From assembly GCA_964457955.1 (NCBI GenBank), contig CAYWEY010000003.1, positions 14,439 through 78,438 on the forward strand: a stretch of DNA of 64,000 bases. Direction: 5' to 3'. The translations under genes were made by a program, and so were the position numbers. Below, piece by piece: positions 5,656 through 56,357 of this stretch. How positions within the stretch are numbered: the stretch's first letter is position 1; each line of letters starts with the position of its first letter. The notes under the pieces were generated by a model, which saw nothing but the letters and a program-made list of their open reading frames with translations, ran no database searches and was not told where the DNA came from. The DNA comes from Candidatus Woesearchaeota archaeon (GTDB lineage Archaea; Nanobdellota; Nanobdellia; Tiddalikarchaeales; Tiddalikarchaeaceae).

Positions 5656-6354
5656 TTAATATATGCTTTTTGAATTCTTTAATTGTTCCTCAGTATCTAT
5701 GTGTATTAAAGAACCAATATGAACAATTATTGTATCAGGATTTTCCTGTTTCCAGTCATAAAGTGCTTTATACCACTGGTACTCTTTGCCATTTAGTTCA
5801 GAATATTTTTCGATTTTCTTAAAATACTGACTTGAATAAATATTTATGCCAGTATAATACAAATTACTTTCAGGTATTTTCGCTGCTTTATTAATACTTA
5901 TGTTGCATTTTTTTAATTCTTTCTTTTTAACACCTGCATGAATCATGCTTAAATCATTATTTTCTTTAAATGGGTTGATTATTTTCTCATATTGTTCTAA
6001 AGATAATATCTTATCACCACTTAGCATGAGAAGGTGTTCATAATTTTTTTTTTCAAAAAAATCTTTAGCATAATAAGCAGAACTTTCTCCAACATAATCT
6101 TTTCCGCCATCAACAAATTTTATTCTTATCCCATAATCTCTTTCTTTAAAATAATTAATTATTTTGTTCTTCAGATAATCAACAATAACTACAACTTCTT
6201 TAAAACCCGCTTTCTCTAAATTATTAATCTTAATCTCAAGCAATGACTTATTGTTCAGTTTAACCATTGGTTTAGGAATATTAAATGTTATTGGTCTTAA
6301 ACGAGTACCTTTTCCTCCAGCAAGGATTATTGGCAATAATTTATCAAGTTTCAT
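5656..6354 (-). CDS. sugar-phosphate nucleotidyltransferase (NDP-sugar pyrophosphorylase)
   Basis: ILAGGKGTRLRPIT signature of the G1P thymidylyl/mannose-1-P guanylyltransferase family. Confidence 0.7.
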   Translation of the reverse strand: MKLDKLLPIILAGGKGTRLRPITFNIPKPMVKLNNKSLLEIKINNLEKAGFKEVVVIVDYLKNKIINYFKERDYGIRIKFVDGGKDYVGESSAYYAKDFFEKKNYEHLLMLSGDKILSLEQYEKIINPFKENNDLSMIHAGVKKKELKKCNISINKAAKIPESNLYYTGINIYSSQYFKKIEKYSELNGKEYQWYKALYDWKQENPDTIIVHIGSLIHIDTEEQLKNSKSIY

Positions 6355-11687: not shown

Positions 11688-11726
11688 AAATCCTATTTCT
11701 GGATTCAATAGTATAAAAATTATATC

Positions 11727-11895
11727 GGGCTCGAGGGGATTTGAACCCCCGACCTACTGCTTAATCCCCTAAATATGTTCATAGTAGGTCAGTGTCTTCA
11801 TATGATTTCATGAGTAAAATCTCAGTTGACCTTCTTCTAATCATAATTTTTTAGGTTAGGAGGCAGTCGCTCTATCCAAACTGAGCTACGAGCCC
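11727..11895 (-). tRNA. tRNA-Arg (anticodon CCT) with a 95-nt intron at the canonical 37/38 position
   Basis: 5' exon 11857-11895 (GGGCUCGUAGCUCAGUUUGGAUAGAGCGACUGCCUCCUA) and 3' exon 11727-11761 (AGCAGUAGGUCGGGGGUUCAAAUCCCCUCGAGCCC) join to a 74-nt cloverleaf; intron 11762-11856. Confidence 0.7.
11789..11844 (-). ncRNA. candidate C/D-box sRNA embedded in the tRNA-Arg(CCT) intron
   Basis: In tRNA orientation: AUGAUUA (C-like), 12 nt, CUGA (D'), 10 nt, AUGAAAU (weak C'), 12 nt, CUGA (D). 56 nt, typical archaeal C/D sRNA size; the C box deviates from RUGAUGA. Confidence 0.35.
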
Positions 11896-19161: not shown

Positions 19162-19435
19162 GTGGTTGGTTAGTACCCTGCCTTCTGTACAACCCCTATT
19201 AACTTTGAATAGTAGGGTGTTGGCAACATTCTACTAAGCGCACCAGTGTGCTTGCACTTCTCAACAGGTTAAGAGATTTTCCATCCCAAATTCATGAAAC
19301 CTCAATTCAAATATCATCGTGCTCATGAAAGGGTGTTTTTCTGCTTCTCATTAACAAATCCTTAAGATTAATTGTCTGTTTCTCAGTGGGCAGAGGTTCC
19401 CCAGCAATCAGCCGTGAGTTGCCTAAACCAACCAC
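19162..19435. ncRNA. unidentified GC-enriched structured RNA candidate (~274 nt)
   Basis: ~42% GC island in ~28% GC DNA; perfect 10-bp terminal helix GTGGTTGGTT/AACCAACCAC plus several internal hairpins; no ORF. Could not be matched to 5S, SRP RNA or RNase P RNA consensus by eye. Confidence 0.3.
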
Positions 19436-19635
19436 TAAATAATAATATCTAAAAATAGACTTATAAATATTTTCCTGCAAAAAAAAACCAGAACCATACT
19501 AAAATTTTCATGAATTATTATCCAAAAGAAGCCCGCTTAGTATCATTATCTCTTCACCATAAATCTCATAACACTACCTCATCATATTTTCTTATCTCTT
19601 CCCCAATATTATGGAATTCAACAATTATAGAAAAT

Positions 19636-19869
19636 TTAGTGATTTTCGTATTTGTTAATTAAATCTCTTAATTCATCCCACTTTTTTTTAACATACAATT
19701 TACCAAAAGTTCTTTTATCCTCTTCACTCCAGCCTTTTGTTACAATTGTTCGTAAAGTTATGAATTCTTTATACTTATTGAAATCTCCAACTTTATTTAT
19801 AATGTATTCATCTTTCTTAAATTTCTTGAAATCCTTTACATATTTTTTTATTTTATCAACAAGTTTCAT
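19636..19869 (-). CDS. small K/E-rich hypothetical protein
   Basis: 77 aa; preceded by copy B of the promoter-like motif. Confidence 0.35.
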   Translation of the reverse strand: MKLVDKIKKYVKDFKKFKKDEYIINKVGDFNKYKEFITLRTIVTKGWSEEDKRTFGKLYVKKKWDELRDLINKYENH

Positions 19870-19915
19870 ATTAGAAGAATAAAAGAAAAAAACACACTTA
19901 AAAATATTACTATCT
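19870..19915 (-). promoter_or_regulatory. putative BRE/TATA promoter (copy B of duplicated motif)
   Basis: AAAGAAAAAAACACACTTAAAAATATTACTAT matches copy A in ~35/40 positions. Confidence 0.3.
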
Positions 19916-19989
19916 AGTAGTAAAAAAAAGTATTGAATATCAATTGCATTGGTGGATTAAAAAAACACGACTTCTCCTGTATAACACAA

Positions 19990-22935
19990 ATTATTTGTGA
20001 GTTTCAGCTTATTAGTGAACGCGGGCTTAACACGTCGTTGCCTTCGTGCTTACACCCCGTTTCTATCTAACCCATCATTTAATGGAAAGCTTCAGACGAT
20101 GCCTCTTTTTGCGGAGGGCTTCGAGCTTAGATGCTTTCAGCTCTTATCCCATTGGGACGTAGCTGCCCAGCGTGCCTTGTCAGACAACTGGTAGACCAGT
20201 GGTCCCGGAGGATCGTTCCTCTCGTACTCAACCCTCCTTCCACTCAGGCATCGAACACTTCCAGTAGATATAAGCCGAACTGAGTCACCTCGTTCTGAAC
20301 CCAGCTCACGATCCCTTTTAATCGGTGAACACCCGCACCCTTGGCCGCTTGTGTACGGCCAGGATAGAGAGAGCCGACATCGATGAAGCAAGCCCCGCCG
20401 TAGATGCATTCTCCCGGGCGGGACAACTCTGTTATCCCCAGGGTAGCTTTTCTGTCAGACGTATTCCTCAAAAAAAGGATATATACGCGTTCGCTAAACC
20501 ACACTTTCGTGTCAGAACTTCTCGCTGTGCGAAGTCCTGTCAGGCCAGCTTTTGCTTTTGCACTCTACTCCGGATTTCTGTCCCGGATGAGCTGACCTTA
20601 GGGCGCCGGTGATAAATTTTCGCCGGCGTGCCACCCCAGCCAAACTGCCCGACAACAGGTGTCCCAAGAGATAAATCTCAAGGTAAGCATTATCATCCAT
20701 AATTGACAGTGTCCCATTGACGGCTCAGCAACACCCGAAAGTATTGCGTCGAAGCCTTCTGTCTACGCTTCGAATTACGGGTAATAACGCAGCTGCAGGC
20801 TGCAGTAAAGTTCCTGGGGTCTTCTCATCCCACTGGAAGTCCCCGGCTTCTGCACCGGGCAAGTGTATTCACAGGGTTCAAGTTTGGGACAGTAGGAACC
20901 TAGTTACGTCGTTCGCAAAGCCACTAATTAGATGGCAAGGCATTGCGCTACCATAAGAAGGTCATAGTTACCTCCGTCGTTTACCAGTCCTTAGGCCCGT
21001 TGAACCGGGATTTCAGATACTGGCACTGGACAGACGTCACGGGTTATACAAGACGTTTCCGTTTAGCAACCCGCTATGTTTTTGTTAAACAGTCCGGTTC
21101 CCCTAGTCACTGCGCCCAGCACTCGCAGTCTTAAGACTACGAACGCTGAGACCCCTTCTCCCGAAGTTACGGGGCGAATTTGCCGAGTTCCCTAAACTTG
21201 ATTACACCCTACAGGCCTTAGGCTACTCACCCAGGACACCTGTGTCGGTTCTGGGTACGGTTAATCAGAGTCCTTGAAGATGAGATTTTCACGGGCTCCA
21301 GGAATTAATTGAACTCGAGTACACGAGCTGTTCTCAGTATTAATCCATTTCTCCTCATTACGAGACTCCATGGACTTGTACTGATTAAATAACACGACAG
21401 TGTTACTCAACCTATCCCGAAGCGTCTCTCAATCCTCCTTGCGTTGCCGCACGTATCTGATTAGTACAGGAATATTAACCTGTTTCCTTTTCCCCACTTA
21501 GCAGTTAAGCCGTGAGTTAAGACCGACTAACTCTTCGCTGACGAGCGGTGCGAAGAAACCCTTGTCCTTACGGCCATGTGGATTCTCACCACACTATGAT
21601 GCTACTACCGGCAAGATACTCAAACCCAAAACGGTCCATGCAAACTCACGTTCGCACTTCTAACCACTCAGGTCGCCTTCCTACCCGGACACGTCCTACA
21701 ACGTGTCCCCTAAAGTCTCGGTAATTGGCTTAGCCCCGTCCATTTACAGCGCCACCAACCTTGATGAGTAAGCTATTACGCACTTATTATAGGTTTGCTG
21801 CTTCTAAGCCTACCTCCTCACTGTCTCTGGTTGATGACAACCTCATTTGCACTTAGTCAATATTTTGGGACCTTAACTTTAGTCTGGGTTGTTCCCCTCT
21901 CGAACATAAGGCTTACCCCTATGCTCCGACTCCCACCATCTCAGATATTGCAGCATTCGGAGTTTGACTTGGGATCGGGAAACTTTTGTCTCCTCGCATG
22001 CCAAATCAGTATCTCTACCTCTGCAACCATCTCCGGTGAGGCTAGACTGTGGCCTAATTTGGAAGGAACCAGCTATCGCCGAACACGATTGGCTTTTCAC
22101 CCCTATTCCCAGCTCTCGGGAACGCCTTGCTCACAGTACCCCTACAGTCCTCCACGAACTGGAAAGTCCGCTTCAACTTGTCCAGGAATAGATCGTTCGG
22201 CTTCGGGTATTAAAGCAGTAACTTCAGGCGCTATTCACACCCTGCCCCTCGCATGCTGTGGGCATAATTGCTTTCGCTTCGGCTTCACACTAAACGTGTT
22301 TAACCTCGCCACTACCTTAAATTCCTTGCCTCTTTGTCCAAAAGGAACACTGCAACACTCGAAGTGCCGCAGCCTCCTGTGACCATTAGGTTTCAGGATC
22401 TTTTAACTCCCTTTTACGGGTTCTTTTCAACTTTCCCTCACGGTACTTGTACGCTATCGGTATCCTAACCTATTTAGGGTTGGAAGTTTTTGACTCCCAT
22501 CTTCTTAGAGGAATACCATCCCCTAATACTCTGGGAACTGGATATCATTCTTTTTACTTCCTTTACGGGACTGTCACCCTCTATGGTGCTCTATTCCAAG
22601 AGACTTTAAGTCGTAAAAACAATGAATGTTTCCAGCCCAAAACAGCACATCTCACTCATGTCACCATGACTGATTCACTTTGCCCTATTCCCCTTTCGAT
22701 CGACTCTAATAAGGGAATCCCTAACTTGGTTTCTCTTCCTGCGGGTACTAAGATGATTCAATTCTCCGCGTTCCTCCTGCCAAAAGCAGTAACCCCGAAG
22801 GGTTCGGATTCCTATTCGGGAATTCCTGGCTCAAAGGCTCCATGCGCCTCCCCAGGACTTATCGCAGCTTGGCACGCCCTTCATCAGGGTTAGGATCCAA
22901 GTCATCCACCTAATGGCGTCTTTACTCCACATCAT
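19990..22935 (-). rRNA. rrl: 23S (LSU) ribosomal RNA
   Basis: Minus strand 5' region GGUGGAUGACUUGG...CCCUGAUGAAGGGCGUGCCAAGCUGCGAUAAG (22861-22910), sarcin-ricin loop AGUACGAGAGGAACGAUC (20215-20232), GC-rich ~2.95 kb with no coding potential; ends approximate (+/-40 nt). Confidence 0.9.
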
Positions 22936-46570: not shown

Positions 46571-47839
46571 TTATTCGTAAGTTATTGCTTTTATCGGGTC
46601 AAGATGAGATGCTTTCCTTGCAGGAAGATATCCTGAAAGAGCCCCAATAACAATACTAAGAAGCAATGAATAAAACAGTATATTAAAACTTATTGCTAAT
46701 CTTATACCATTAGATAATCCTGGAAGCACCGCAGGAGCAAAACTAACCATTATTTGAGCCAATCCAATACCCATAATTATACCACCAAAACCCCCTATTA
46801 AACTTATTAATACAGACTCAACAAGAATTAATAATATAATATCCAGATTCTTAGCACCAATCGCTTTCATAATACCAATTTCACGAGTCCTCTCATAAAC
46901 ACTAGTAAACATAGTATTAGATATTGAAACCACACCAACCAACAAACTAATTGCAGCAATACCCGTCAATAACATTGTTATAGTATTCAAAACATCACCC
47001 ACCATACTCATCTTAGAAACACTTTCTAAAATATGAAAATCCTCCTCATCCCATTCACTAATATCATGAGTATTGCGCAATGCTTCTTTTATCAAAACAG
47101 AAGTCTCATTAACAACATCCTGACTTGAAGCACGAACAGTTATACTATCATAACTTTCATCCCAACCCTCATCAAACAACTCAACATTATCAACAATCAT
47201 AAACACACTATCATCCGAACCACCCCTACCCTGCTCTTCAAGTATACCTGCAACGCGAAACTCCTCACTATACTCATCACCACTCTCATCTTCAAACAAC
47301 AAAATATCCCCAACAAAAACTTCCTCATCAAAAACCTCATGAGCAATACGATAACCAATAACAATCTTGTCCTCATCATTATCATCCATAAAATAACCCT
47401 CTTCAAAATCAAAACTCTCAATCACCTCATACTCTGAAGGAATAACAAAATTAACAGAGACAGTAATACTCTCATCCTCAAACTCCATTCTCAAACGCTC
47501 ACTCACCAGAGGACTAACAGCAACAATATTCGGAAGAGTCAAGAGTTCATCAACATCCTCATCTGTCAAAACTGCTTCCCCATTATCATATTCATTATTC
47601 TTATATCCTCCTGGACGCATCCTACTCGCTTCCTGCGCACTACCCGGCAATACTTGAATATTCTCAGTGCCAAAAGCACTGAACTGCTCATTCAAACTTA
47701 CATTAATACTCTCGCCAAGACTCATTAATCCAACAACACTCGCTATACCAATAACTATACCAAGAATAGTCAACCAGCTACGCAATCCTTTAAAACCAAT
47801 ATTCTTTAATGATAATGATAAAACATCCCTAAGTCTCAT
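46571..47839 (-). CDS. ABC transporter permease, MacB/FtsX-type with periplasmic domain
   Basis: N-terminal TM + MacB_PCD-like extracytoplasmic domain + C-terminal FtsX 3-TM bundle. Confidence 0.8.
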   Translation of the reverse strand: MRLRDVLSLSLKNIGFKGLRSWLTILGIVIGIASVVGLMSLGESINVSLNEQFSAFGTENIQVLPGSAQEASRMRPGGYKNNEYDNGEAVLTDEDVDELLTLPNIVAVSPLVSERLRMEFEDESITVSVNFVIPSEYEVIESFDFEEGYFMDDNDEDKIVIGYRIAHEVFDEEVFVGDILLFEDESGDEYSEEFRVAGILEEQGRGGSDDSVFMIVDNVELFDEGWDESYDSITVRASSQDVVNETSVLIKEALRNTHDISEWDEEDFHILESVSKMSMVGDVLNTITMLLTGIAAISLLVGVVSISNTMFTSVYERTREIGIMKAIGAKNLDIILLILVESVLISLIGGFGGIIMGIGLAQIMVSFAPAVLPGLSNGIRLAISFNILFYSLLLSIVIGALSGYLPARKASHLDPIKAITYE

Positions 47840-47852
47840 TCCCCACTACTCC

Positions 47853-49253
47853 TTACTTCTTTTTCCTTTTCTTAATAATTACATAACTAACCACAACAAC
47901 AAATACTACTCCAATAAAACCAAGTCCTGCATAAACTCCAGTCCAATCAACAGTTCCCTGATTCTTAAAACCACCTCCCCCCTGCTTAAAATCTTCAGGC
48001 ATGTCGGGAGTAGCAAAACTCGTAGTTGCTTGACTATCATAAATTATCTCTTTTGTAATGTTCTCAACCATTCTCTGACCCAACTGATTCGTGAAACTAA
48101 TCTCAAAACCCAAATCAATCAATCCTTCAGAAACCATCTCCTGCCGAGCCCCCCTCCTCTCCTGCATACTCATATTCTCACCTTTTAATGTAAAAGTAAA
48201 ACTGGACGTTGAATAATCACCAGGCACCAAATCACCCACAAAATCCTGATTAACACTCCCAATACCAATATTCCCATTATCCCTTATAGATAATACAACA
48301 GAATCCGCATCAACAGTACCAATATTAGCAAGAGTCACCCTCACTTTAACTTCAGAACTATCCTTACTGAAAGAAACATCCTTAATCAACAATTCAAAAG
48401 GAGAACCCCCCTCAATATTCGCCCCAAAACTACTTTCAGAACTATACTCATCACTATCACTCTCATAACTCAAGTTAACAACAGACTCATGCATTCCAGT
48501 ACTCACAGAACTATCCGAAACAAGCTCCAAAACAACATCCTGACTCTCACCACCAAAAATATCATCTAAAACAATAACATTAGATGATGAGTGAGTGCTA
48601 AAAGTATCAGAATCAAAACTCAACTCAACATTCTCTGCTTCAACAACACCTGAATTCTTAACAGTCAATATTAATTGAAAAACTTCTCCAGGAGTAATCT
48701 CCTCATCAGACAAAACAATATCTGAAATAATCAAGTTCGGCTCTATACGCGAATTCTCTATCTCAAAAAATTCCTTATAACTCACATGTTTCCCAAAATC
48801 CTCATCAGAACCATCATAACTAGGCCTTGTTGAATATCTTATACTAAAATATGCTGAATAATAATCTGTAGTAATATTCTCAGGAATCTCTATCTTATAA
48901 ATCAGTTGTTTAGAATCACTTCCATAAACATCACCAACAGGTTCATAACAACTACTAGGATATTCTAAACAAACCCTTCTGGATAAACTAAATTTATTAC
49001 AACTCTCACACTCCATACTACACTCAAGAGGAGAATCAACACTATCAAGAACAATCTCAGTATTATAAGCTGGGTTCGTCCCATCATTATTCAATATAAT
49101 TTTTAGATAACCCGTCCCGCCAGGCTCCATTCCAACAACTTCCGAACTAATCTGCAATACAGGGTTTTCAGGAGTAGCTCCCGAACAAAAATTAATTAAC
49201 AACAAACTAACCAATATAACTGCTACCGGTCTTAACTTCATATTCACCATCAC
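47853..49253 (-). CDS. large secreted/cell-surface protein with C-terminal TM anchor (COG1361/DUF11-like)
   Basis: Signal peptide, beta-rich S/T/D-rich extracellular region, C-terminal TM helix + KKRKKK stop-transfer. Confidence 0.45.
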   Translation of the reverse strand: MMVNMKLRPVAVILVSLLLINFCSGATPENPVLQISSEVVGMEPGGTGYLKIILNNDGTNPAYNTEIVLDSVDSPLECSMECESCNKFSLSRRVCLEYPSSCYEPVGDVYGSDSKQLIYKIEIPENITTDYYSAYFSIRYSTRPSYDGSDEDFGKHVSYKEFFEIENSRIEPNLIISDIVLSDEEITPGEVFQLILTVKNSGVVEAENVELSFDSDTFSTHSSSNVIVLDDIFGGESQDVVLELVSDSSVSTGMHESVVNLSYESDSDEYSSESSFGANIEGGSPFELLIKDVSFSKDSSEVKVRVTLANIGTVDADSVVLSIRDNGNIGIGSVNQDFVGDLVPGDYSTSSFTFTLKGENMSMQERRGARQEMVSEGLIDLGFEISFTNQLGQRMVENITKEIIYDSQATTSFATPDMPEDFKQGGGGFKNQGTVDWTGVYAGLGFIGVVFVVVVSYVIIKKRKKK

Positions 49254-49932
49254 TTATCACCTTTCCATCAAGCATTTTAATAACACGAGGCGCTTGCCTC
49301 GCAATCTTAGGATCATGAGTCACAACAATCAAAGTATTACTATTATTCCATAATTTCTTGAACAATTTAACCACTTCCTTACCAGTCTTGCTATCCAAAT
49401 TACCAGTAGGCTCATCAGCAAAAATTATCTTCGGATTATTCGCTAATGCACGAGCAATAGCAACTCTCTGCCGCTGACCACCCGACAATTGTCCAGGAAG
49501 ATGGTCACATCTTTCTCCAAGACCCACATTCTTAAGCAGTTTCCTCGCCCTCTCCTTACGATCACCATCCTCCTCACCCGCAAAAATCATAGGTAATTCA
49601 ACATTCTCAAGAGCAGTCAAATTAGGTGTTAAGAAAAAAAACTGGAAAACAAAACCAATATTCTCACTTCTCAAATGAGTAAGTTCATCATCACTTAATT
49701 CATCAACTTTAGAACCGTTTATGAAAACATTCCCCTTTGTAGGCATGTCCAATAATCCCATAACATGCATAAGAGTACTCTTACCACATCCAGACGGACC
49801 GTAAACAGCGATGAACTCACCTTCTTCAACTTCCAAACTAACACCATTAACTGCTTTCACAATATTACTCTTGCCAAGACGATAATACTTCTTCACATTC
49901 TTCAACTCGATTATCTTATTATTATCACTCAT
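49207..49932 (-). CDS. ABC transporter ATP-binding protein (MacB/LolD-like)
   Basis: GPSGCGKSTL Walker A, LSGGQRQRVAIARAL signature, IFADEPTGNLD Walker B; likely start at MSDNNK (49932), not the ORF-track start 49962. Confidence 0.85.
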   Translation of the reverse strand: MSDNNKIIELKNVKKYYRLGKSNIVKAVNGVSLEVEEGEFIAVYGPSGCGKSTLMHVMGLLDMPTKGNVFINGSKVDELSDDELTHLRSENIGFVFQFFFLTPNLTALENVELPMIFAGEEDGDRKERARKLLKNVGLGERCDHLPGQLSGGQRQRVAIARALANNPKIIFADEPTGNLDSKTGKEVVKLFKKLWNNSNTLIVVTHDPKIARQAPRVIKMLDGKVISDGEYEVKTGSSYIG

Positions 49933-49973
49933 GAATAATATTTCATAATACTGAAACAGCATATTAAACTAAC

Positions 49974-50972: not shown

Positions 50973-51300
50973 TTGAGATTTAAAATTCTTCTCAAGTTCT
51001 TTGCCTAATTTTTTAGGATTTTCTTTTAATTTTTTAATAATATTTTTGAGCTTACTCTTCTTTTTATCAAATCTTTTTCTCTTTTTAGATATAAGTTATA
51101 TAATAAAATCTTAATATTTTATTCTTTGTATGAGAATTCCTTTATTCTTACAATATCATCCAACATATAACAGATAAATACTCCTACTGCTATTATTCCA
51201 AACCCTGTGTAAGCATTTTGGTGGAATATTTGTAAACATTATGAAAATATATGAAATTGCAAAAACAGGGGAAGAAAAATTAATAATTACGATGCATTAA

Positions 51301-52298
51301 TCAACCAAGTTTCTCATTATAGAAACAATTTGGATCTGAATTAAATAATGATCCTGTTTTATAGAATGAACTTGCTCTGCATCCCCCACAAAAATATTTA
51401 GAATTACAAGAGCCACAAGGGCCATTAAATGAAGTTCTATTCCTTAATCTTTTCAAAACTTTATTATTAAACCAGATATCATTTAATGATTCATTGAAAA
51501 CATTGGCCAAAACGTATTTAATGAAAGGACAAGGCAAAACATCACCATTAGAACAAATATAAATTGATGCCACTCCTGCAATACATCCCCCAGTTATTCC
51601 TTTTCTTTTATTACTTTCAAGTAGTTTAAATCTATCATCATCAACCAAAAATAAAAGAACATTAGAGCATTTGATCAGTTTATTATTTTTTTTAATTTTT
51701 GATATCTTCTTAAGAGCTTTTTGCAATTCTTTTGGATTTAATGTTTCATTTTCAAAGGAATTGTTAACCGGGACCAGACGATTGATTCCTATTTCAACAT
51801 TCATTTCAGAAGCAAATTTATCTAATTCATCTAATGAATTAATCAATGATTTATGTAATGCTGCTTGAAGTGTAACCTTAATGTTATTATTTTTAAGTAA
51901 TTCAATTTTACTAATCAAATCTGACAAATAATTCTCTCTAAAACAAGATTCATCCCCTGGAGGCACATCAATACTCAATTGAATTGAATCAAATACTTTT
52001 AATTGGTTAATATTATTTTCATTTATCAACAAACCATTAGTCATCAAGATTAATTTAGGAAAATCTTTTTGCTTAGCATATATAGCATATTCAAATAATT
52101 CTTTAACCATTAATGGCTCCCCCCCCCAGTAAATACTAACCTATAAACTTCAAGTTCTTTTAATTCATCAATCAAACTAAAAACTTTTTCAGGATTTAAT
52201 TTTTTTACAGGATTACGTCTAACATAACAATGCTTACAATCAAGATTGCATTCATTTGTTAATTCTATTTCAACTATATGAAGCCCTTTATTTTCCAT
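51301..52298 (-). CDS. radical SAM / SPASM-domain enzyme (paralog 3), interrupted by a frameshift in a C9 run
   Basis: N-terminal ORF (52110-52298) ELTNECNLDCKHCY (CxxxCxxC)...VFTGGG stops inside a C9 run; C-terminal ORF (51301-52110) has SPASM cysteines CIAGVASIYICSNGDVLPC...CGSCNSKYFCGGCRA. Confidence 0.6.
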
Positions 52299-53352
52299 CT
52301 CTCAAACCATAAATAACACAATAAGGGTCACCTCTAAAAGGATCACCTAATAATTTATCCGCAAAAGCCCTACACCCACCTGTGCATAATCTCAATAAAT
52401 CACATTTACTACACTTATCTTCTTTTGGGATGAAATAACGAAACTTTTTCATAACACTTGAGTCTTTCCAAACTTTTAATAAATCATCAGTAAGCGCATT
52501 ACCACACAAAAACTTTTCTGATTTGAAATAATTACACGGAACAATATACCCACTAGCAGTTATAACCATTTTAAATCTCCCAGCCATACAAAAAGGAATT
52601 TTTATTCTATCAAGTTCGTTTAAAAAAATTAAAGCATGATTTGGTTTGATTTTAATATCTAATTTTTTAATTTTTTGGTATATGGTATAAAACTCTCTCC
52701 ATTCTTTTTTAGATAAAATATATTTATGTCTTGATTCACCACAAGGGATCATATCTAATAAATGTAATTCCATATAATCTCTTTTTTTAACAAAAGAAGC
52801 TAATTCAAAAATTTCCTTATAATTTAATTTATTAACAACACATGCGATTGATATTTTATTTTTATCAAAATACTTCTCTAACAATTCTAAAGAATCAAAC
52901 AATTTTTTAAGTAAATCCTTCCCTCCTCTTATTTCATCCTGTTTATTTAAACTATCGATATTAACATTAATTTTATCAAAACCAATTTCTCCAATCCTTT
53001 TAGCAATTAATTTATTAATTAATAATAAGTTTGTATTTAGATGAACTTTTATTCCATTTCTTTTTAAAGAATCCGCAAGTTCTAAAAGAATTTCCGCTCT
53101 AATCAATGGTTCACCTCCAGAAAATGAAACATACAAAGGATTTAATTGATTAATGATTTTTTTATTAATAATTCTTAACTCATCATTATTTAATTCTCTT
53201 TTTTTAAAACAATTATCTTTATTATAACAATAAACACAATCAAGATTGCATTTGTTAGTTAAATCAAATTGTACTTGTGCAGGTCTAGTAAATAAATATT
53301 CAAAATCAGATAATTTCTTAGAATTAGTTAAATCAAATTTTGGATTCATCAA
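52288..53352 (-). CDS. radical SAM / SPASM-domain enzyme (paralog 2)
   Basis: FDLTNKCNLDCVYCYN (CxxxCxxC), SFSGGEPL, SPASM CMAGRFKMVITASGYIVPC...CSKCDLLRLCTGGCRA. Confidence 0.75.
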   Translation of the reverse strand: MMNPKFDLTNSKKLSDFEYLFTRPAQVQFDLTNKCNLDCVYCYNKDNCFKKRELNNDELRIINKKIINQLNPLYVSFSGGEPLIRAEILLELADSLKRNGIKVHLNTNLLLINKLIAKRIGEIGFDKINVNIDSLNKQDEIRGGKDLLKKLFDSLELLEKYFDKNKISIACVVNKLNYKEIFELASFVKKRDYMELHLLDMIPCGESRHKYILSKKEWREFYTIYQKIKKLDIKIKPNHALIFLNELDRIKIPFCMAGRFKMVITASGYIVPCNYFKSEKFLCGNALTDDLLKVWKDSSVMKKFRYFIPKEDKCSKCDLLRLCTGGCRAFADKLLGDPFRGDPYCVIYGLRDGK

Positions 53353-53390
53353 TTAAATCCAAGAGAATATTTATTCTTAAATATTTCTAA

Positions 53391-53492
53391 CTAATCTCCA
53401 TTTAATTCACAAACAGAACTCAAAACTTCTTCAACAGATAATTTCCATGAGTCTTCATTTGAATCTTCTGTTTTTTTAGTTGCTTCTTCCAT
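53391..53492 (-). CDS. candidate precursor peptide (33 aa; below ORF-track cutoff): MEEATKKTEDSNEDSWKLSVEEVLSSVCELNGD
   Basis: ATG..TAG ORF in the 165-nt gap between the methyltransferase and rSAM paralog 2, same strand; acidic leader-like N-half, single Cys near C-terminus. Confidence 0.3.
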   Translation of the reverse strand: MEEATKKTEDSNEDSWKLSVEEVLSSVCELNGD

Positions 53493-53517
53493 AAACAAGT
53501 GTAATTACTATCAATAT

Positions 53518-54294
53518 TTATAAACTTTTTCTTAAAATGTAATATTGCCTGCTAAGGTGTTTTTGTTCATCCCAATATATCTTGGATTCATCAATTATTT
53601 CCAACACTTCAAAACCAATATCGTTAACAATACTTTCGATCTCACTTGACGAATAACCTCGTTCCACATGTTTTTCTTTAATTTCTTTTTCACCTTTTTT
53701 TAGTATTATATCCAAACACCATATATTTTCTTCTCCACTGAAATTAAATGTGATATTATTCCTCCCTATATTAAAAATTCTTTGTGGTGCATTACTTGAC
53801 ACACTTACATGCTCTTTTGTATTCATATCAAATATGAAATAAGCTCCTTTGTTTAAATGGTCATAGACCTTCTTAAAAACCTTTTTTAAATCGTCAATAG
53901 ATAATAAATAATTAAGTGAATCATAAAATGATACTGCCAGATCAAATTTTTTAGGAATATTAAAAGTTCTTAAGTCACTGATTACAAAATTAATCTTATC
54001 ATTATATGCTTTAAGTTTTTCTTTTGCGAGATTAATCATATATTTTGATTTATCAACACCTACTACATTAAAATCTAACTCTAATAACATCTTAGAAATC
54101 GTCCCTGTCCCACAAGCAAGATCTATTGCATTTCCTTTAATACTATACTTTTTAACTTGTTCTTTAATAAGATCATTCCATTTATCGTATTTCGATGAAG
54201 TCATTAATTCATCATAAAGATTTGAGAATTCAATTCCATAATTATTTGGTTGTTTCATTTTGATGACTGTATGAAAACCTACAGAAACCTCCAC
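53518..54294 (-). CDS. class I SAM-dependent methyltransferase (Methyltransf_11/25-like)
   Basis: IDLACGTGTISKML motif I, VGVDKS, LAVSFYDSLNY. Confidence 0.7.
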   Translation of the reverse strand: MEVSVGFHTVIKMKQPNNYGIEFSNLYDELMTSSKYDKWNDLIKEQVKKYSIKGNAIDLACGTGTISKMLLELDFNVVGVDKSKYMINLAKEKLKAYNDKINFVISDLRTFNIPKKFDLAVSFYDSLNYLLSIDDLKKVFKKVYDHLNKGAYFIFDMNTKEHVSVSSNAPQRIFNIGRNNITFNFSGEENIWCLDIILKKGEKEIKEKHVERGYSSSEIESIVNDIGFEVLEIIDESKIYWDEQKHLSRQYYILRKSL

Positions 54295-55417
54295 ATCTTA
54301 TTTCATCCTTATTGATATCACACTCTTCACAAAGCGGAATTAAAAATTTTTCTGTCTCTTCTAATAAATCAGAAATTACTCTTTCAGGAATATATTCATT
54401 TAAATTACCTAATTTTGAGTTTCTATCCATCACACAAGGATATAAATATCCTTTAACATCTATCGATATCCTCTTTCTAATACCACACCCATACCATCTT
54501 GATTCGGGTATTGTTTTTTTAGTTGCTAAAAATCCGTTACGGACGTGTTTATTACTTAAATATTGTTTCAATACAATATGAGCATCTTTTGAATTAATTT
54601 TATTAAACACAGCATTTCCTGTTTTAATTGCAGGTCTCAAATGAAGAGTGGTATTAAAATTTTTGGCCAAATTTATAAGTTTTGGAACATCTGAATAATT
54701 GTGGTCTCCAAGAGTAGTTACTAAATATTCTGGGATATTGTTCTCACATAATTTTTCTAAACCAATCAACAAATCATCAAATAAACCTTTTCTTTTACGA
54801 ATCGTATCATGGTTTTTTCCATAACCATCTATGCTTACAGCAAGACCAAGACTATTTTTTAATGTTTTAAAAAAGTCTTCATTTTTATTTTTTAATTGAC
54901 CTCCATTTGTAACAATATAATAATTTCTTCCATTATTATCTATTCTTTTAAGAATTTCTTGCAAATCATTTCTAAGAAGAGGTTCTCCCCCAGTTACTTC
55001 AAAAACCATCAAACCTAAATCACACAATTTATCAACTCTTTCTAATAAATCCTTTTTACTTGGCGAACCTTTATTCAAATCTTTTTTATGATAACAAGCT
55101 TTACAATCACAATCACAATTTGATGTTGCTTCTAACAAAACTTGTGAAGGCAAGAGATCGTTATCAACCTTAAAAGTTTTAACATAATTATTATTGTTCT
55201 CAATAATTATCCCGCTTTGATATAATCTAACTAAATCTTTTGTTGAAACTTGTGAGAAGTCATTATTTAACAATGATTTTGTTGTTTTTTTATCAACCCA
55301 AAAAAATGATGCATAAAGACCAGGAGTTACTATTGTACTTCCTGAAGGTTCTTGTCTTATTATTGTCTTTTCATCGAATCCTAATTTATAAAAATCAATA
55401 TTTTTAATTATATCCAA
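54242..55417 (-). CDS. radical SAM / SPASM-domain enzyme (paralog 1) with ~100-aa N-terminal extension (possible RRE-like substrate-binding domain)
   Basis: LLEATSNCDCDCKACY (CxxxCxxC), VTGGEPLL, SPASM WYGCGIRKRISIDVKGYLYPC...CEEC...CGGFC; 53-nt overlap with methyltransferase. Confidence 0.75.
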   Translation of the reverse strand: MDIIKNIDFYKLGFDEKTIIRQEPSGSTIVTPGLYASFFWVDKKTTKSLLNNDFSQVSTKDLVRLYQSGIIIENNNNYVKTFKVDNDLLPSQVLLEATSNCDCDCKACYHKKDLNKGSPSKKDLLERVDKLCDLGLMVFEVTGGEPLLRNDLQEILKRIDNNGRNYYIVTNGGQLKNKNEDFFKTLKNSLGLAVSIDGYGKNHDTIRKRKGLFDDLLIGLEKLCENNIPEYLVTTLGDHNYSDVPKLINLAKNFNTTLHLRPAIKTGNAVFNKINSKDAHIVLKQYLSNKHVRNGFLATKKTIPESRWYGCGIRKRISIDVKGYLYPCVMDRNSKLGNLNEYIPERVISDLLEETEKFLIPLCEECDINKDEIRCGGFCRFSYSHQNETTK

Positions 55418-55472
55418 ATCAGTATTATCTTTCCTGATTTCACTTAAACATGGAACTCCTAAGTTGTGTTGA

Positions 55473-56357
55473 TTAATAATAGTAATTTTTCATCATCTCT
55501 GTCATTTCATTATAACAAATATCATCTGAAACTTCTACATTAATAATCCTTTTGATTGCATTTTCCTTTTTAATAATCCCCCATCTGATTCTTTCTGAAA
55601 AATAATTGATCACTATTGGTAGTGATTTATTGATTTGTTTCAAAGTTAATTTGCTTTTTCCATAAATATTTCTTAATATAAAACCAGGTATTAAACAATC
55701 AGTGTCATACCCTCCACACATAGGATCCTCCCAAGGAATTCTTTCTTCATTTTTAATATTTTTAATTTTCTCTTTTGTTAACCCCAATGCTGCCGAACCT
55801 CTTAAAACGCAATAATCTCTTTTTTTCCAAAAAATTGAGTATCGTTTTAATGATTCATTGAATTTTGGAGTATCCCCTCCTGTTATTAATAAATTATTAC
55901 TATTTTGCTTTAAATATTTTTTATAATAATTATCCAGTATATCGTTACAAATTTTACCGCAAGGAAGTTTTTTATTCACAATCATATCTGTGTAAATACA
56001 TTTATCTTTATCATTTATATTAATCCATTCATGATTATTCTTTAAATTTTCAAATTCTAAAACCCTTCGAATATTTTTTTTCACCTTATTTCCTTTATAA
56101 CCATGATTAATGGTAAAAAGATTAAGTTCCACATTATAATCATCAGTTAACTTTCTTAATTCATGTAGTGTTATAACACTATCTAATCCTCCTGAAAAAG
56201 CAAAACTAACTGAATCAGTTTCTAATAAATAATTTATTAATTCTTGCTTAAACAGAGTGGAAAAACATTTAACTGTTTCATCATCTAATTCTTTACAATA
56301 ATCACAAATTGTATTCTTTGTCAATACAAGACAATTATCACAAAATTCCATGTACAT
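55473..56357 (-). CDS. PP-loop ATP pyrophosphatase, TtuA/NcsA-like architecture (N-terminal Cys4 zinc ribbon + SGGxDS)
   Basis: CDNC...CDYC, then SFAFSGGLDSV PP-loop; additional Cys pairs CGKIC and CGGYDTDC. Confidence 0.55.
   Translation of the reverse strand: MYMEFCDNCLVLTKNTICDYCKELDDETVKCFSTLFKQELINYLLETDSVSFAFSGGLDSVITLHELRKLTDDYNVELNLFTINHGYKGNKVKKNIRRVLEFENLKNNHEWININDKDKCIYTDMIVNKKLPCGKICNDILDNYYKKYLKQNSNNLLITGGDTPKFNESLKRYSIFWKKRDYCVLRGSAALGLTKEKIKNIKNEERIPWEDPMCGGYDTDCLIPGFILRNIYGKSKLTLKQINKSLPIVINYFSERIRWGIIKKENAIKRIINVEVSDDICYNEMTEMMKNYYY

Follow-up and report, generated by a model that had tools for sequence, protein, structure and literature searches.

What is encoded in a short gap of an archaeal radical S-adenosylmethionine (rSAM) gene cluster, and is it the substrate of the enzymes beside it? 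We examined a 64,000-nucleotide (nt) stretch, hereafter the window, of contig CAYWEY010000003.1 from Candidatus Woesearchaeota archaeon. There, a sequence-only reading had picked out an unannotated open reading frame (ORF) of 33 codons, lying between a methyltransferase gene and the enzyme gene rSAM-2, as a candidate precursor peptide gene for the adjacent rSAM/SPASM enzyme. Our analysis supports that proposal on three grounds: conservation, strict co-occurrence with an enzyme pair, and a protein in sister clusters with the fold of a recognition element (RRE) of RiPPs, peptides that ribosomes synthesize and that are modified post-translationally. The peptide gene is real; it is probably separately transcribed and probably encodes the precursor substrate of both rSAM-2 and its neighbor rSAM-3. 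We infer the modification, the residues modified, and all of the chemistry from gene context. The three genes concerned are the following.

53391..53492, minus strand: probable precursor-peptide gene, 33 codons plus TAG (translation, upstream homologs, leave-out profile, synonymous codon variation).
52288..53349, minus strand: rSAM-2, an rSAM/SPASM protein of 353 residues (Pfam Radical_SAM, SPASM, and Fer4_12; CxxxCxxC and the full seven-Cys SPASM motif).
51301..52298, minus strand: rSAM-3, an rSAM/SPASM protein split by a +2 frameshift into ORFs of 62 and 269 residues (Pfam and NCBIfam matches on both pieces).

The coordinates and translation claimed for the peptide ORF were borne out exactly. 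Read on the minus strand from 53492 to 53391, the DNA encodes MEEATKKTEDSNEDSWKLSVEEVLSSVCELNGD followed by the stop codon, and residues 16 to 33 (WKLSVEEVLSSVCELNGD) are the window peptide's version of a family motif, W-K-L-x9-C-x-L-N-G-D. The methyltransferase stop codon lies at 53518-53520 and the rSAM-2 ORF opens at TTG 53352 (ATG 53349), which leaves a gap of 165 nt. The minus strand carries the peptide ORF and every gene that flanks it, and there the cluster runs in the order PP-loop protein, rSAM-1, methyltransferase, peptide ORF, rSAM-2, and rSAM-3 (two ORFs). As far as the word "unannotated" can be tested, it stands: the exact peptide is on record from a Logan assembly only, and the adjacent rSAM-2 is on record from NCBI. 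Guanine-cytosine (GC) content in this region is 26-31%, and dozens of ORFs of 20-40 codons occur there. Because short ORFs are so abundant in AT-rich DNA, an ORF of this length is unremarkable by itself, and its significance hangs on comparative evidence.

We found about 60 orthologous rSAM-2 clusters, at 39-99% identity. We fetched the contexts of 13 orthologs, and in each of them rSAM-2 is immediately preceded by a small ORF that encodes the same motif at its C-terminus. The sequence-only reading had named a lack of conservation in orthologous clusters as grounds for dropping the peptide; we found the ORF conserved in every cluster examined. Some source annotations call these homologs, at 29-49 residues, and they are often left uncalled. 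Loci carrying both the peptide and rSAM-2 number more than 20, are archaeal and bacterial, and span GC contents of 23-66%. The shared motif has fixed spacing, [DE]-x-W-[KQR]-[LMI]-x9-C-x-[ILV]-N-x-[DN], and is followed by a stop codon or a short tail; a consensus of the peptide reads ...WQMDVEEFNANGCLINGD.

Across 22 distinct peptide genes, the Trp, Cys, and Asn of the motif are invariant, while the codons of conserved residues vary (TGT/TGC, AAT/AAC, GAT/GAC, four Gly codons, and seven codons at the Leu/Ile position). Because the residues stay constant while their codons change, this synonymous variation is a signature of selection at the protein level. The sequence-only reading had described an acidic, leader-like N-terminal half and an SVCELNGD tail, and this description held in part. 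The Asn at Cys+3 is invariant and Asp or Asn is kept at Cys+5, in addition to the Cys itself. However, conservation covers the last 18 residues, beginning at Trp; the acidic N-terminal stretch differs among members in both length and sequence; and the Glu that follows Cys in the window peptide is not kept, its place being taken by L, A, T, or M in relatives. The Lys after Trp is replaced by Gln, Arg, or Ala in much of the family.

We left the window peptide and its closest relative out of the family profile and used it to score all 865 window ORFs of at least 30 codons. The window peptide ORF scored 32.5 bits (E 3.9e-9), and the runner-up scored 5.5 bits. A HMMER profile search of 1.84 billion representative proteins returned 80 representatives at E ≤ 1e-3, of which 78 are 26-68 residues long with the motif at the C-terminus. 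All database homologs of the peptide are unnamed or labeled "hypothetical," and none has a Pfam domain. The cluster in locus L083 has two tandem peptide genes (about 5767-5844 and 5988-6074; also in L084), and in proteins P0088, P0161, and P0145 one ORF holds the core motif twice. Tandem genes and repeated cores are typical of substrates. Some members also extend 1-15 residues beyond the motif.

The peptide co-occurs strictly with the rSAM-2/rSAM-3 pair. To look at this independently of the enzymes, we scanned metagenomes with a back-translated DNA pattern of the peptide motif alone and obtained 64 matches. Nine scored 33-59 bits with the family profile, and all nine have a same-strand rSAM-2 homolog downstream. 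The other 55 scored ≤16.4 bits, with in-frame stops or positions inside long unrelated proteins (e.g., NuoF-like), and the enzyme accompanied none of them. Some of the nine true matches are also in the profile, so their scores are partly circular; the enzyme pairing is not. A second scan of contigs, with a pattern drawn from the rSAM-2 alignment, yielded a single ortholog (L001) among the matches listed, the remainder being generic rSAM genes. The invariant unit is the peptide, rSAM-2, and rSAM-3, with the two enzyme genes usually overlapping and the accessory genes varying.

In six sister loci (L134, L140, and L162-165), a gene for a protein of 67-73 residues lies exactly between the peptide gene and rSAM-2. 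This protein has no Pfam or NCBIfam match, and a profile search of PDB sequences returned noise only. An AlphaFold2 model built from an eight-sequence alignment was confident, with a predicted local distance difference test score (pLDDT) of 90.9. The top PDB matches of this model in Foldseek were TbiB1 with its leader peptide (probability 1.00, template-modeling score 0.67), the PbtF RRE, McbB, LynD/TruD, and ThcOx, with modest E-values (≥0.014), as expected of a 70-residue domain. In addition, hhalign aligned the protein over its whole length with the PqqD-annotated N-termini of distant rSAM homologs (P 4.9e-4). RRE domains bind substrates, and the Foldseek matches listed here are RiPP leader-binding domains. 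A gene with this modeled fold beside the peptide gene in sister clusters is, in our view, good evidence of peptide-substrate binding by the family.

The peptide gene is also separately signaled, with promoter-like signals of its own. One feature in the window carries this point.

53517..53532, minus strand: candidate archaeal promoter, a purine-rich stretch resembling a B recognition element, AGAAAAAG, followed by a TATA box, TTTATAAA (from the sequence).

The TATA box shares bases with the methyltransferase stop codon, and 24 nt separate its end from the peptide ATG. Seven archaeal copies (the window, L081, L082, L112, L123, and both copies in L083) have a TTTATA[AT]A box placed 21-24 nt upstream of the ATG, and a TATA geometry of 21-24 nt is expected for an archaeal promoter of leaderless mRNA. 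This spacing predicts a leaderless or near-leaderless peptide transcript. In bacterial copies, -35/-10 boxes and a Shine-Dalgarno site are present, and a hairpin plus T-run separates the peptide gene from rSAM-2; such a layout is common for RiPP precursor genes. A scan for sigma-70 promoters and terminators found fewer promoter-like sites than in shuffled sequences, the model not being applicable to an archaeon. The 165-nt gap has no Rfam match, and its RNA fold is not unusually stable (z = -1.6).

Two further sequence similarities touch the peptide gene. Over 44 nt, positions 53401-53444 of the peptide ORF (KLSVEEVLSSVCELN) and 52159-52202 in the N-terminal helix of rSAM-3 (KLNPEKVFSLIDELK) are 75% identical in DNA. 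We considered an origin of the peptide from rSAM-3 and set it aside; the peptide and the rSAM-3 N-terminus of L082 have no such similarity by eye, and the 44-nt match is probably due to chance. A 26-nt direct repeat of 88% identity (53337-53362 at the rSAM-2 start and 53579-53604 in the 3' part of the methyltransferase gene) brackets the peptide gene, and repeats as good as this one are common in the same AT-rich region. A second, weaker precursor candidate of 27 residues had been proposed at 51156-51239 (minus strand). This ORF exists but has no homolog in any related locus; its sole match is partial (20 of 27 residues), cut by a contig end, in an assembly 99.9% identical to the window (L155).

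Both enzymes of the invariant unit retain CxxxCxxC and the seven-Cys SPASM pattern, and the Cys pattern is invariant among rSAM-2 orthologs. The best PDB sequence matches of rSAM-2 are anSME, SuiB, and PqqE, all of which act on peptides or proteins. In all other loci, an intact rSAM-3 ortholog of 329-338 residues directly follows rSAM-2. In the window, the two rSAM-3 pieces (52298 to 52110 and 52110 to 51301) overlap by one base (TAATG), and the break coincides with a homopolymer.

52119..52127, minus strand: run of nine G residues (G9) in the GGE(P) S-adenosylmethionine (SAM)-binding motif of rSAM-3; orthologs read ACT GGN GGN GAA CCN.

The rSAM-3 frame requires seven G residues here, so two surplus Gs disrupt it. 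Logan assemblies L155 and L156, which are 99.9% identical to the window, share this G9. Samples SRR7048218 and SRR7048220 contain the same strain. Given its recurrence in two further assemblies, G9 looks like a true population feature rather than the error of a single assembly, with the proviso that the assemblies may share one study. The rSAM-3 gene could be a pseudogene, or G9 could serve as a phase-variable switch or a slippage site.

Three accessory genes precede the peptide gene in the window cluster.

53518..54294, minus strand: class I SAM-dependent methyltransferase, 258 residues (Pfam Methyltransf_25/11/12); type A accessory gene.
54242..55486, minus strand: rSAM-1, with a SPASM-like C-terminus and an N-terminal extension of ~120 residues (Pfam, ortholog alignment, DNA).
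55473..56357, minus strand: PP-loop ATP pyrophosphatase-family protein, 294 residues (Pfam ATP_bind_3 just under the cut-off); type A and B accessory gene.

We give NCBIfam scores in bits against the cut-off of the model; every curated model was missed widely. The best NCBIfam match of the methyltransferase is a daptide methyltransferase (62.6 against 175), and the gene is also present in L081-L083, L112, L123, L134, L140, and L162. The first canonical start of rSAM-1 is TTG 55417. It is preceded by 23 conserved codons (55418-55486, ITIINQHNLGVPC...) that contain no ATG, GTG, or TTG and overlap the end of the PP-loop gene, and the Met of rSAM-1 orthologs aligns with ATT. The rSAM-1 N-terminus had no match in Pfam or NCBIfam, gave noise only in a PDB profile search, and showed no relationship in hhalign to the small RRE-like protein or to PqqD-like domains; a single-sequence AlphaFold2 model of this domain had a pLDDT of 39, an unusable fold. 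In the alignment, the PP-loop protein has an N-terminal CxxC...CxxC ribbon, an SGGLDS motif, and conserved PCGKxCN and CGGYDTDC segments; it resembles TilS, ArgG, AsnB, TtuA, LarE, and QueC solely around the SGGLDS region. In the PP-loop superfamily, enzymes activate a carboxyl or carbonyl group by adenylation, after which N or S attacks it, and on this analogy the PP-loop enzyme may act on the terminal Asp of the peptide.

We distinguished cluster types by the genes added to the three-gene core. Type A adds the upstream PP-loop protein, rSAM-1, and methyltransferase (the window, L081-L083, L112, L123, L134, L140, and L162-165), and type B adds the PP-loop protein alone, with or without GNAT and amidohydrolase genes, the amidohydrolase occurring in one archaeal cluster. 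Type C, which is bacterial-looking (sigma-70-like boxes, Shine-Dalgarno sites, BamB/Der neighbors), adds GNAT and M20 peptidase genes, and a minimal type, L158, has the core only. Upstream of the sister type A cluster in L162 (2780-4872) lie genes for a stand-alone C39-family peptidase, an APH-type kinase, and a 210-residue unknown protein, which may be extra tailoring or processing genes. In the window, genes for an ABC ATPase, a CARDB-domain protein, and a MacB/FtsX-type permease (46571-49962, minus strand) lie ~1.3 kb downstream of the cluster. We did not count these ABC/MacB genes as cluster members; they stand apart from the cluster here and are not conserved beside it elsewhere. Housekeeping genes surround the clusters, and the genomes are small and low in GC. 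An isoleucyl-tRNA-synthetase-type gene (tRNA-synt_1 plus Anticodon_1) flanks the cluster in L083 (1-2662), L085 (8014-10884), and L088 (8039-10906), in three different orientations, with DUF5915 in L083 and L085; this neighbor may reflect lineage synteny or may be meaningful.

How might the peptide be modified? In the mechanism that we propose, the amphipathic W-K-L-S-V-E-E-V-L stretch would serve as a docking element, bound by the PqqD-like RRE where one is encoded and by the enzymes directly in the window cluster. Docking would place the C-terminal tail, (G)-C-x-[ILV]-N-x-[DN]-COOH, at the SPASM active sites, where the invariant Cys would react. The most likely reaction would be a radical-mediated thioether cross-link that joins Cys with either the invariant Asn (+3) or the terminal Asp/Asn (+5). 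Chemically, this linkage is the simplest prediction, although we hold it tentatively and think it somewhat more apt to be wrong than right. In type A clusters, the product could then be tailored by the third rSAM enzyme, the methyltransferase, and the PP-loop enzyme, which would adenylate a carboxyl or carbonyl group. The core hardly varies over two domains and is C-terminal, and no exporter is conserved with it; a housekeeping metabolite or cofactor is therefore a possible end product, as opposed to a variable antibiotic.

Several observations weigh against the peptide being the substrate of a working pathway of this kind. The peptide has a single Cys for two or three rSAM enzymes. One thioether cannot account for all of these, and additional or other steps must therefore take place; candidates include epimerization, C-C bond formation, and C-terminal oxidative chemistry. 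No RRE was detected in the window's own cluster in a profile search of all window ORFs (best E 0.06). Neither a leader peptidase nor an exporter is conserved across the loci, M20 being confined to bacterial type C clusters and C39 to one sister locus. Finally, rSAM-3 is frameshifted and the conserved N-terminus of rSAM-1 has no canonical start, while the peptide gene, rSAM-2, and the genes for the methyltransferase and the PP-loop protein are intact. Here the pathway may be in decay, phase-variable, or rescued by slippage.

We weighed other explanations of the ORF against the same data. A chance ORF in a 5' untranslated region or intergenic spacer would suit AT-rich DNA with its abundant short ORFs, but it is refuted by the leave-out score, by protein conservation with synonymous changes over the whole GC range, by the roughly 80 representative clusters recovered from the protein database, and by the enzyme found beside nine of nine true pattern matches. 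The ORF might instead be regulatory, encoding a leader or arrest peptide that controls expression of rSAM-2 and rSAM-3 and is no substrate. Its position directly 5' of the enzyme genes and the terminator-like hairpin before rSAM-2 in bacterial versions fit this idea, and the conserved Trp at a fixed distance from the conserved C-terminus recalls arrest peptides such as TnaC. However, C-terminal extensions and duplicated cores shift the motif from the stop codon, the gene occurs in tandem copies and beside an RRE-fold protein in sister clusters, and the gap has neither an Rfam match nor an unusually stable fold, which makes a purely regulatory role very improbable. Only slightly less improbable is an unmodified small partner of the rSAM pair, acting as a subunit, a chaperone, or a Cys ligand to a cluster. 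A single invariant Cys and strict co-occurrence with the enzyme pair would be expected of such a partner; an N-terminus of variable length and repeated cores would not be expected of a structural subunit, RRE domains bind substrates, and anSME, SuiB, and PqqE act on peptides or proteins.

Another possibility refines the precursor reading rather than replacing it: the peptide could be a scaffold for a small molecule, its C-x-x-N-x-D end being converted, tailored, and cut off in the manner of pyrroloquinoline quinone (PQQ) or mycofactocin. The N-terminus varies freely, whereas the core barely changes between DPANN-like archaea and bacteria; this is the pattern of PqqA and MftA and the opposite of hypervariable bacteriocin cores. 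The motif is at the extreme C-terminus, no transporter is conserved, bacterial clusters add an M20 peptidase and GNAT, one archaeal cluster adds an amidohydrolase, and the clusters lie amid housekeeping genes of small, low-GC genomes; MftC and PqqE are also among the better NCBIfam matches of rSAM-2. On the other hand, those matches all fall far under the family cut-offs, the analysis identified no client oxidoreductase candidates, archaeal type A clusters (the window included) lack the peptidase, and the C39-type peptidase in one sister locus points to a secreted peptide. We consider a scaffold possible, though on balance unlikely. We would be a little more guarded still about the larger claim, that these peptides and rSAM-2/rSAM-3 make an unrecognized peptide-derived cofactor or metabolite, a third beside PQQ and mycofactocin, in DPANN-like archaea and bacteria. 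Such a pathway would cross-link the invariant residues at the C-terminus, tailor them by adenylation and methylation, and then release them.

The precursor reading matters in part because genome-mining pipelines see generic "radical SAM/SPASM" or "heme synthase-like" proteins here and overlook the peptide. With the substrate gene, the motif, and the minimal three-gene unit (peptide, rSAM-2, and rSAM-3) defined, an anonymous enzyme pair becomes directly testable. A core that changes little between archaea and bacteria, in very small genomes, is unusual for antibiotic-type RiPPs, and a conserved physiological product (a cofactor, signal, or redox mediator) is possible in organisms whose metabolism is poorly understood. 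An enzyme pair facing a single-Cys core, together with a PP-loop adenylating enzyme, is a hint of undescribed rSAM chemistry.

Away from the cluster, the window contains an archaeal 23S ribosomal RNA (rRNA) gene followed by an archaeal RNase P RNA gene (19163-22935, minus strand). There are no 16S or 5S genes in the 64-kb window, and the rRNA genes appear to be unlinked. An Rfam tRNA match at 11726-11895 (minus strand) spans 170 nt and was unreported by ARAGORN; it is probably an intron-containing archaeal tRNA.

Does this family correspond to any named system? The window peptide matched no Pfam or NCBIfam family at E up to 0.01 and none in NCBIfam at E up to 10. Related peptides, searched at E up to 10, matched nothing in NCBIfam and had one sub-threshold chance match in Pfam. 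The strings GCLINGD and GCLLNGD are absent from the searchable literature, outside of which most subscription journals lie, so that an earlier description is possible; within the same literature, searches on the motif, on GeoRSP, and on archaeal or DPANN rSAM RiPPs returned no description of the family. Where surveys of archaeal RiPP clusters touch on rSAM-type clusters, they do so in generic terms. On the enzyme side, rSAM-2 falls below the cut-off of every NCBIfam model.

The Cys of the core lies close to Asn and Asp, and the enzymes are rSAM/SPASM proteins with two auxiliary clusters, as in the thioether maturases (the ranthipeptide enzyme PapB, QhpD/QhpC, NxxcB, and the sactisynthases). 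Unlike the substrates of those enzymes, the peptide has one Cys rather than several, its C-x-x-N order is the reverse of NxxC, and rSAM-2 scores are low (PapB 68.6 against 340, StsB 79.1 against 625, and SCIFF, AlbA, and SkfB lower). No quinohemoprotein amine dehydrogenase (qhp-like) genes occur in any locus, and the Glu beside Cys, one of the residues on which the sequence-only reading had based a QhpD-type resemblance, is not conserved. We excluded a Cys-Glu link as a family feature, given the L, A, T, or M found after Cys elsewhere. A Cys thioether of the QhpD/PapB kind is plausible, but its partner would be Asn or the terminal Asp/Asn. Streptide-like Lys-Trp chemistry had been suggested as well. 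The window peptide does have a Trp-Lys pair, and WgkB is among the rSAM-2 matches, but the replacement of Lys in much of the family makes a Lys-Trp cross-link unlikely, and the maturase models are missed by far (KxxxW maturase TIGR04080 31.1 against 500, WgkB 103 against 650).

In size, SPASM domain, and top-ranking NCBIfam matches, the enzymes also resemble the heme enzymes AhbD and NirJ. However, rSAM-2 (111.6 for AhbD and 126.3 for NirJ2) and rSAM-3 (105.7 and 101.4) score far under the cut-offs of 500, and the loci have no other heme-pathway genes and instead a peptide gene, with an RRE gene in sister clusters. The label "AdoMet-dependent heme synthase" that JGI gives to one rSAM-2 ortholog is probably an over-annotation. 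The single best NCBIfam match of rSAM-2 is GeoRSP_rSAM (137.6 bits), and rSAM-3 also matches GeoRSP_SPASM. We take GeoRSP and SynChlorMet to be uncharacterized cassettes, defined by NCBIfam/TIGRFAM, in which adjacent paired SPASM-family proteins accompany a PqqD-like protein. The models of both are nevertheless missed: with GeoRSP (TIGR04303, TIGR04304), rSAM-2 scores 137.6 (cut-off 400) and the rSAM-3 fragment 45 (cut-off 300), and with SynChlorMet the scores are 79.7 (ScmE) and 63.3 (ScmF) against 400. In contrast to these cassettes, a precursor peptide is identifiable here and both paralogs keep CxxxCxxC.

The closest parallels in overall logic are with peptide-derived cofactors. As in PQQ biosynthesis (PqqA, PqqD, and PqqE), there is a peptide with an invariant core, an RRE (in sister clusters), and a SPASM enzyme, and the SPASM domain of PqqE is among the top PDB sequence matches; unlike in PQQ biosynthesis, the core has no Glu/Tyr pair (E-x3-Y), there is no PqqB, PqqC, or PqqF, and the PqqE model scores 81.5 against 381. 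Mycofactocin shares a short peptide whose N-terminus varies and whose C-terminal core, which includes Cys, is conserved, the lack of an exporter, a discrete PqqD-like RRE gene (the MftB counterpart) between the peptide and the SPASM enzyme in sister clusters, and MftC among the better matches of rSAM-2. It differs in that rSAM-2 scores 104.8 against 265 with the MftC model, that two or three rSAM enzymes take the place of one, that homologs of MftD, MftE, and MftF were not seen, and that the window cluster has no RRE gene. In addition, the peptide ends in N-x-D/N (N-G-D in the window) rather than G-V-Y, so the Tyr decarboxylation chemistry cannot apply. Judged by their sequences and gene neighborhoods, these appear to be rSAM/SPASM-modified ribosomal peptides that stand outside any named family, possibly one described before, and that resemble the peptide-derived cofactor systems.

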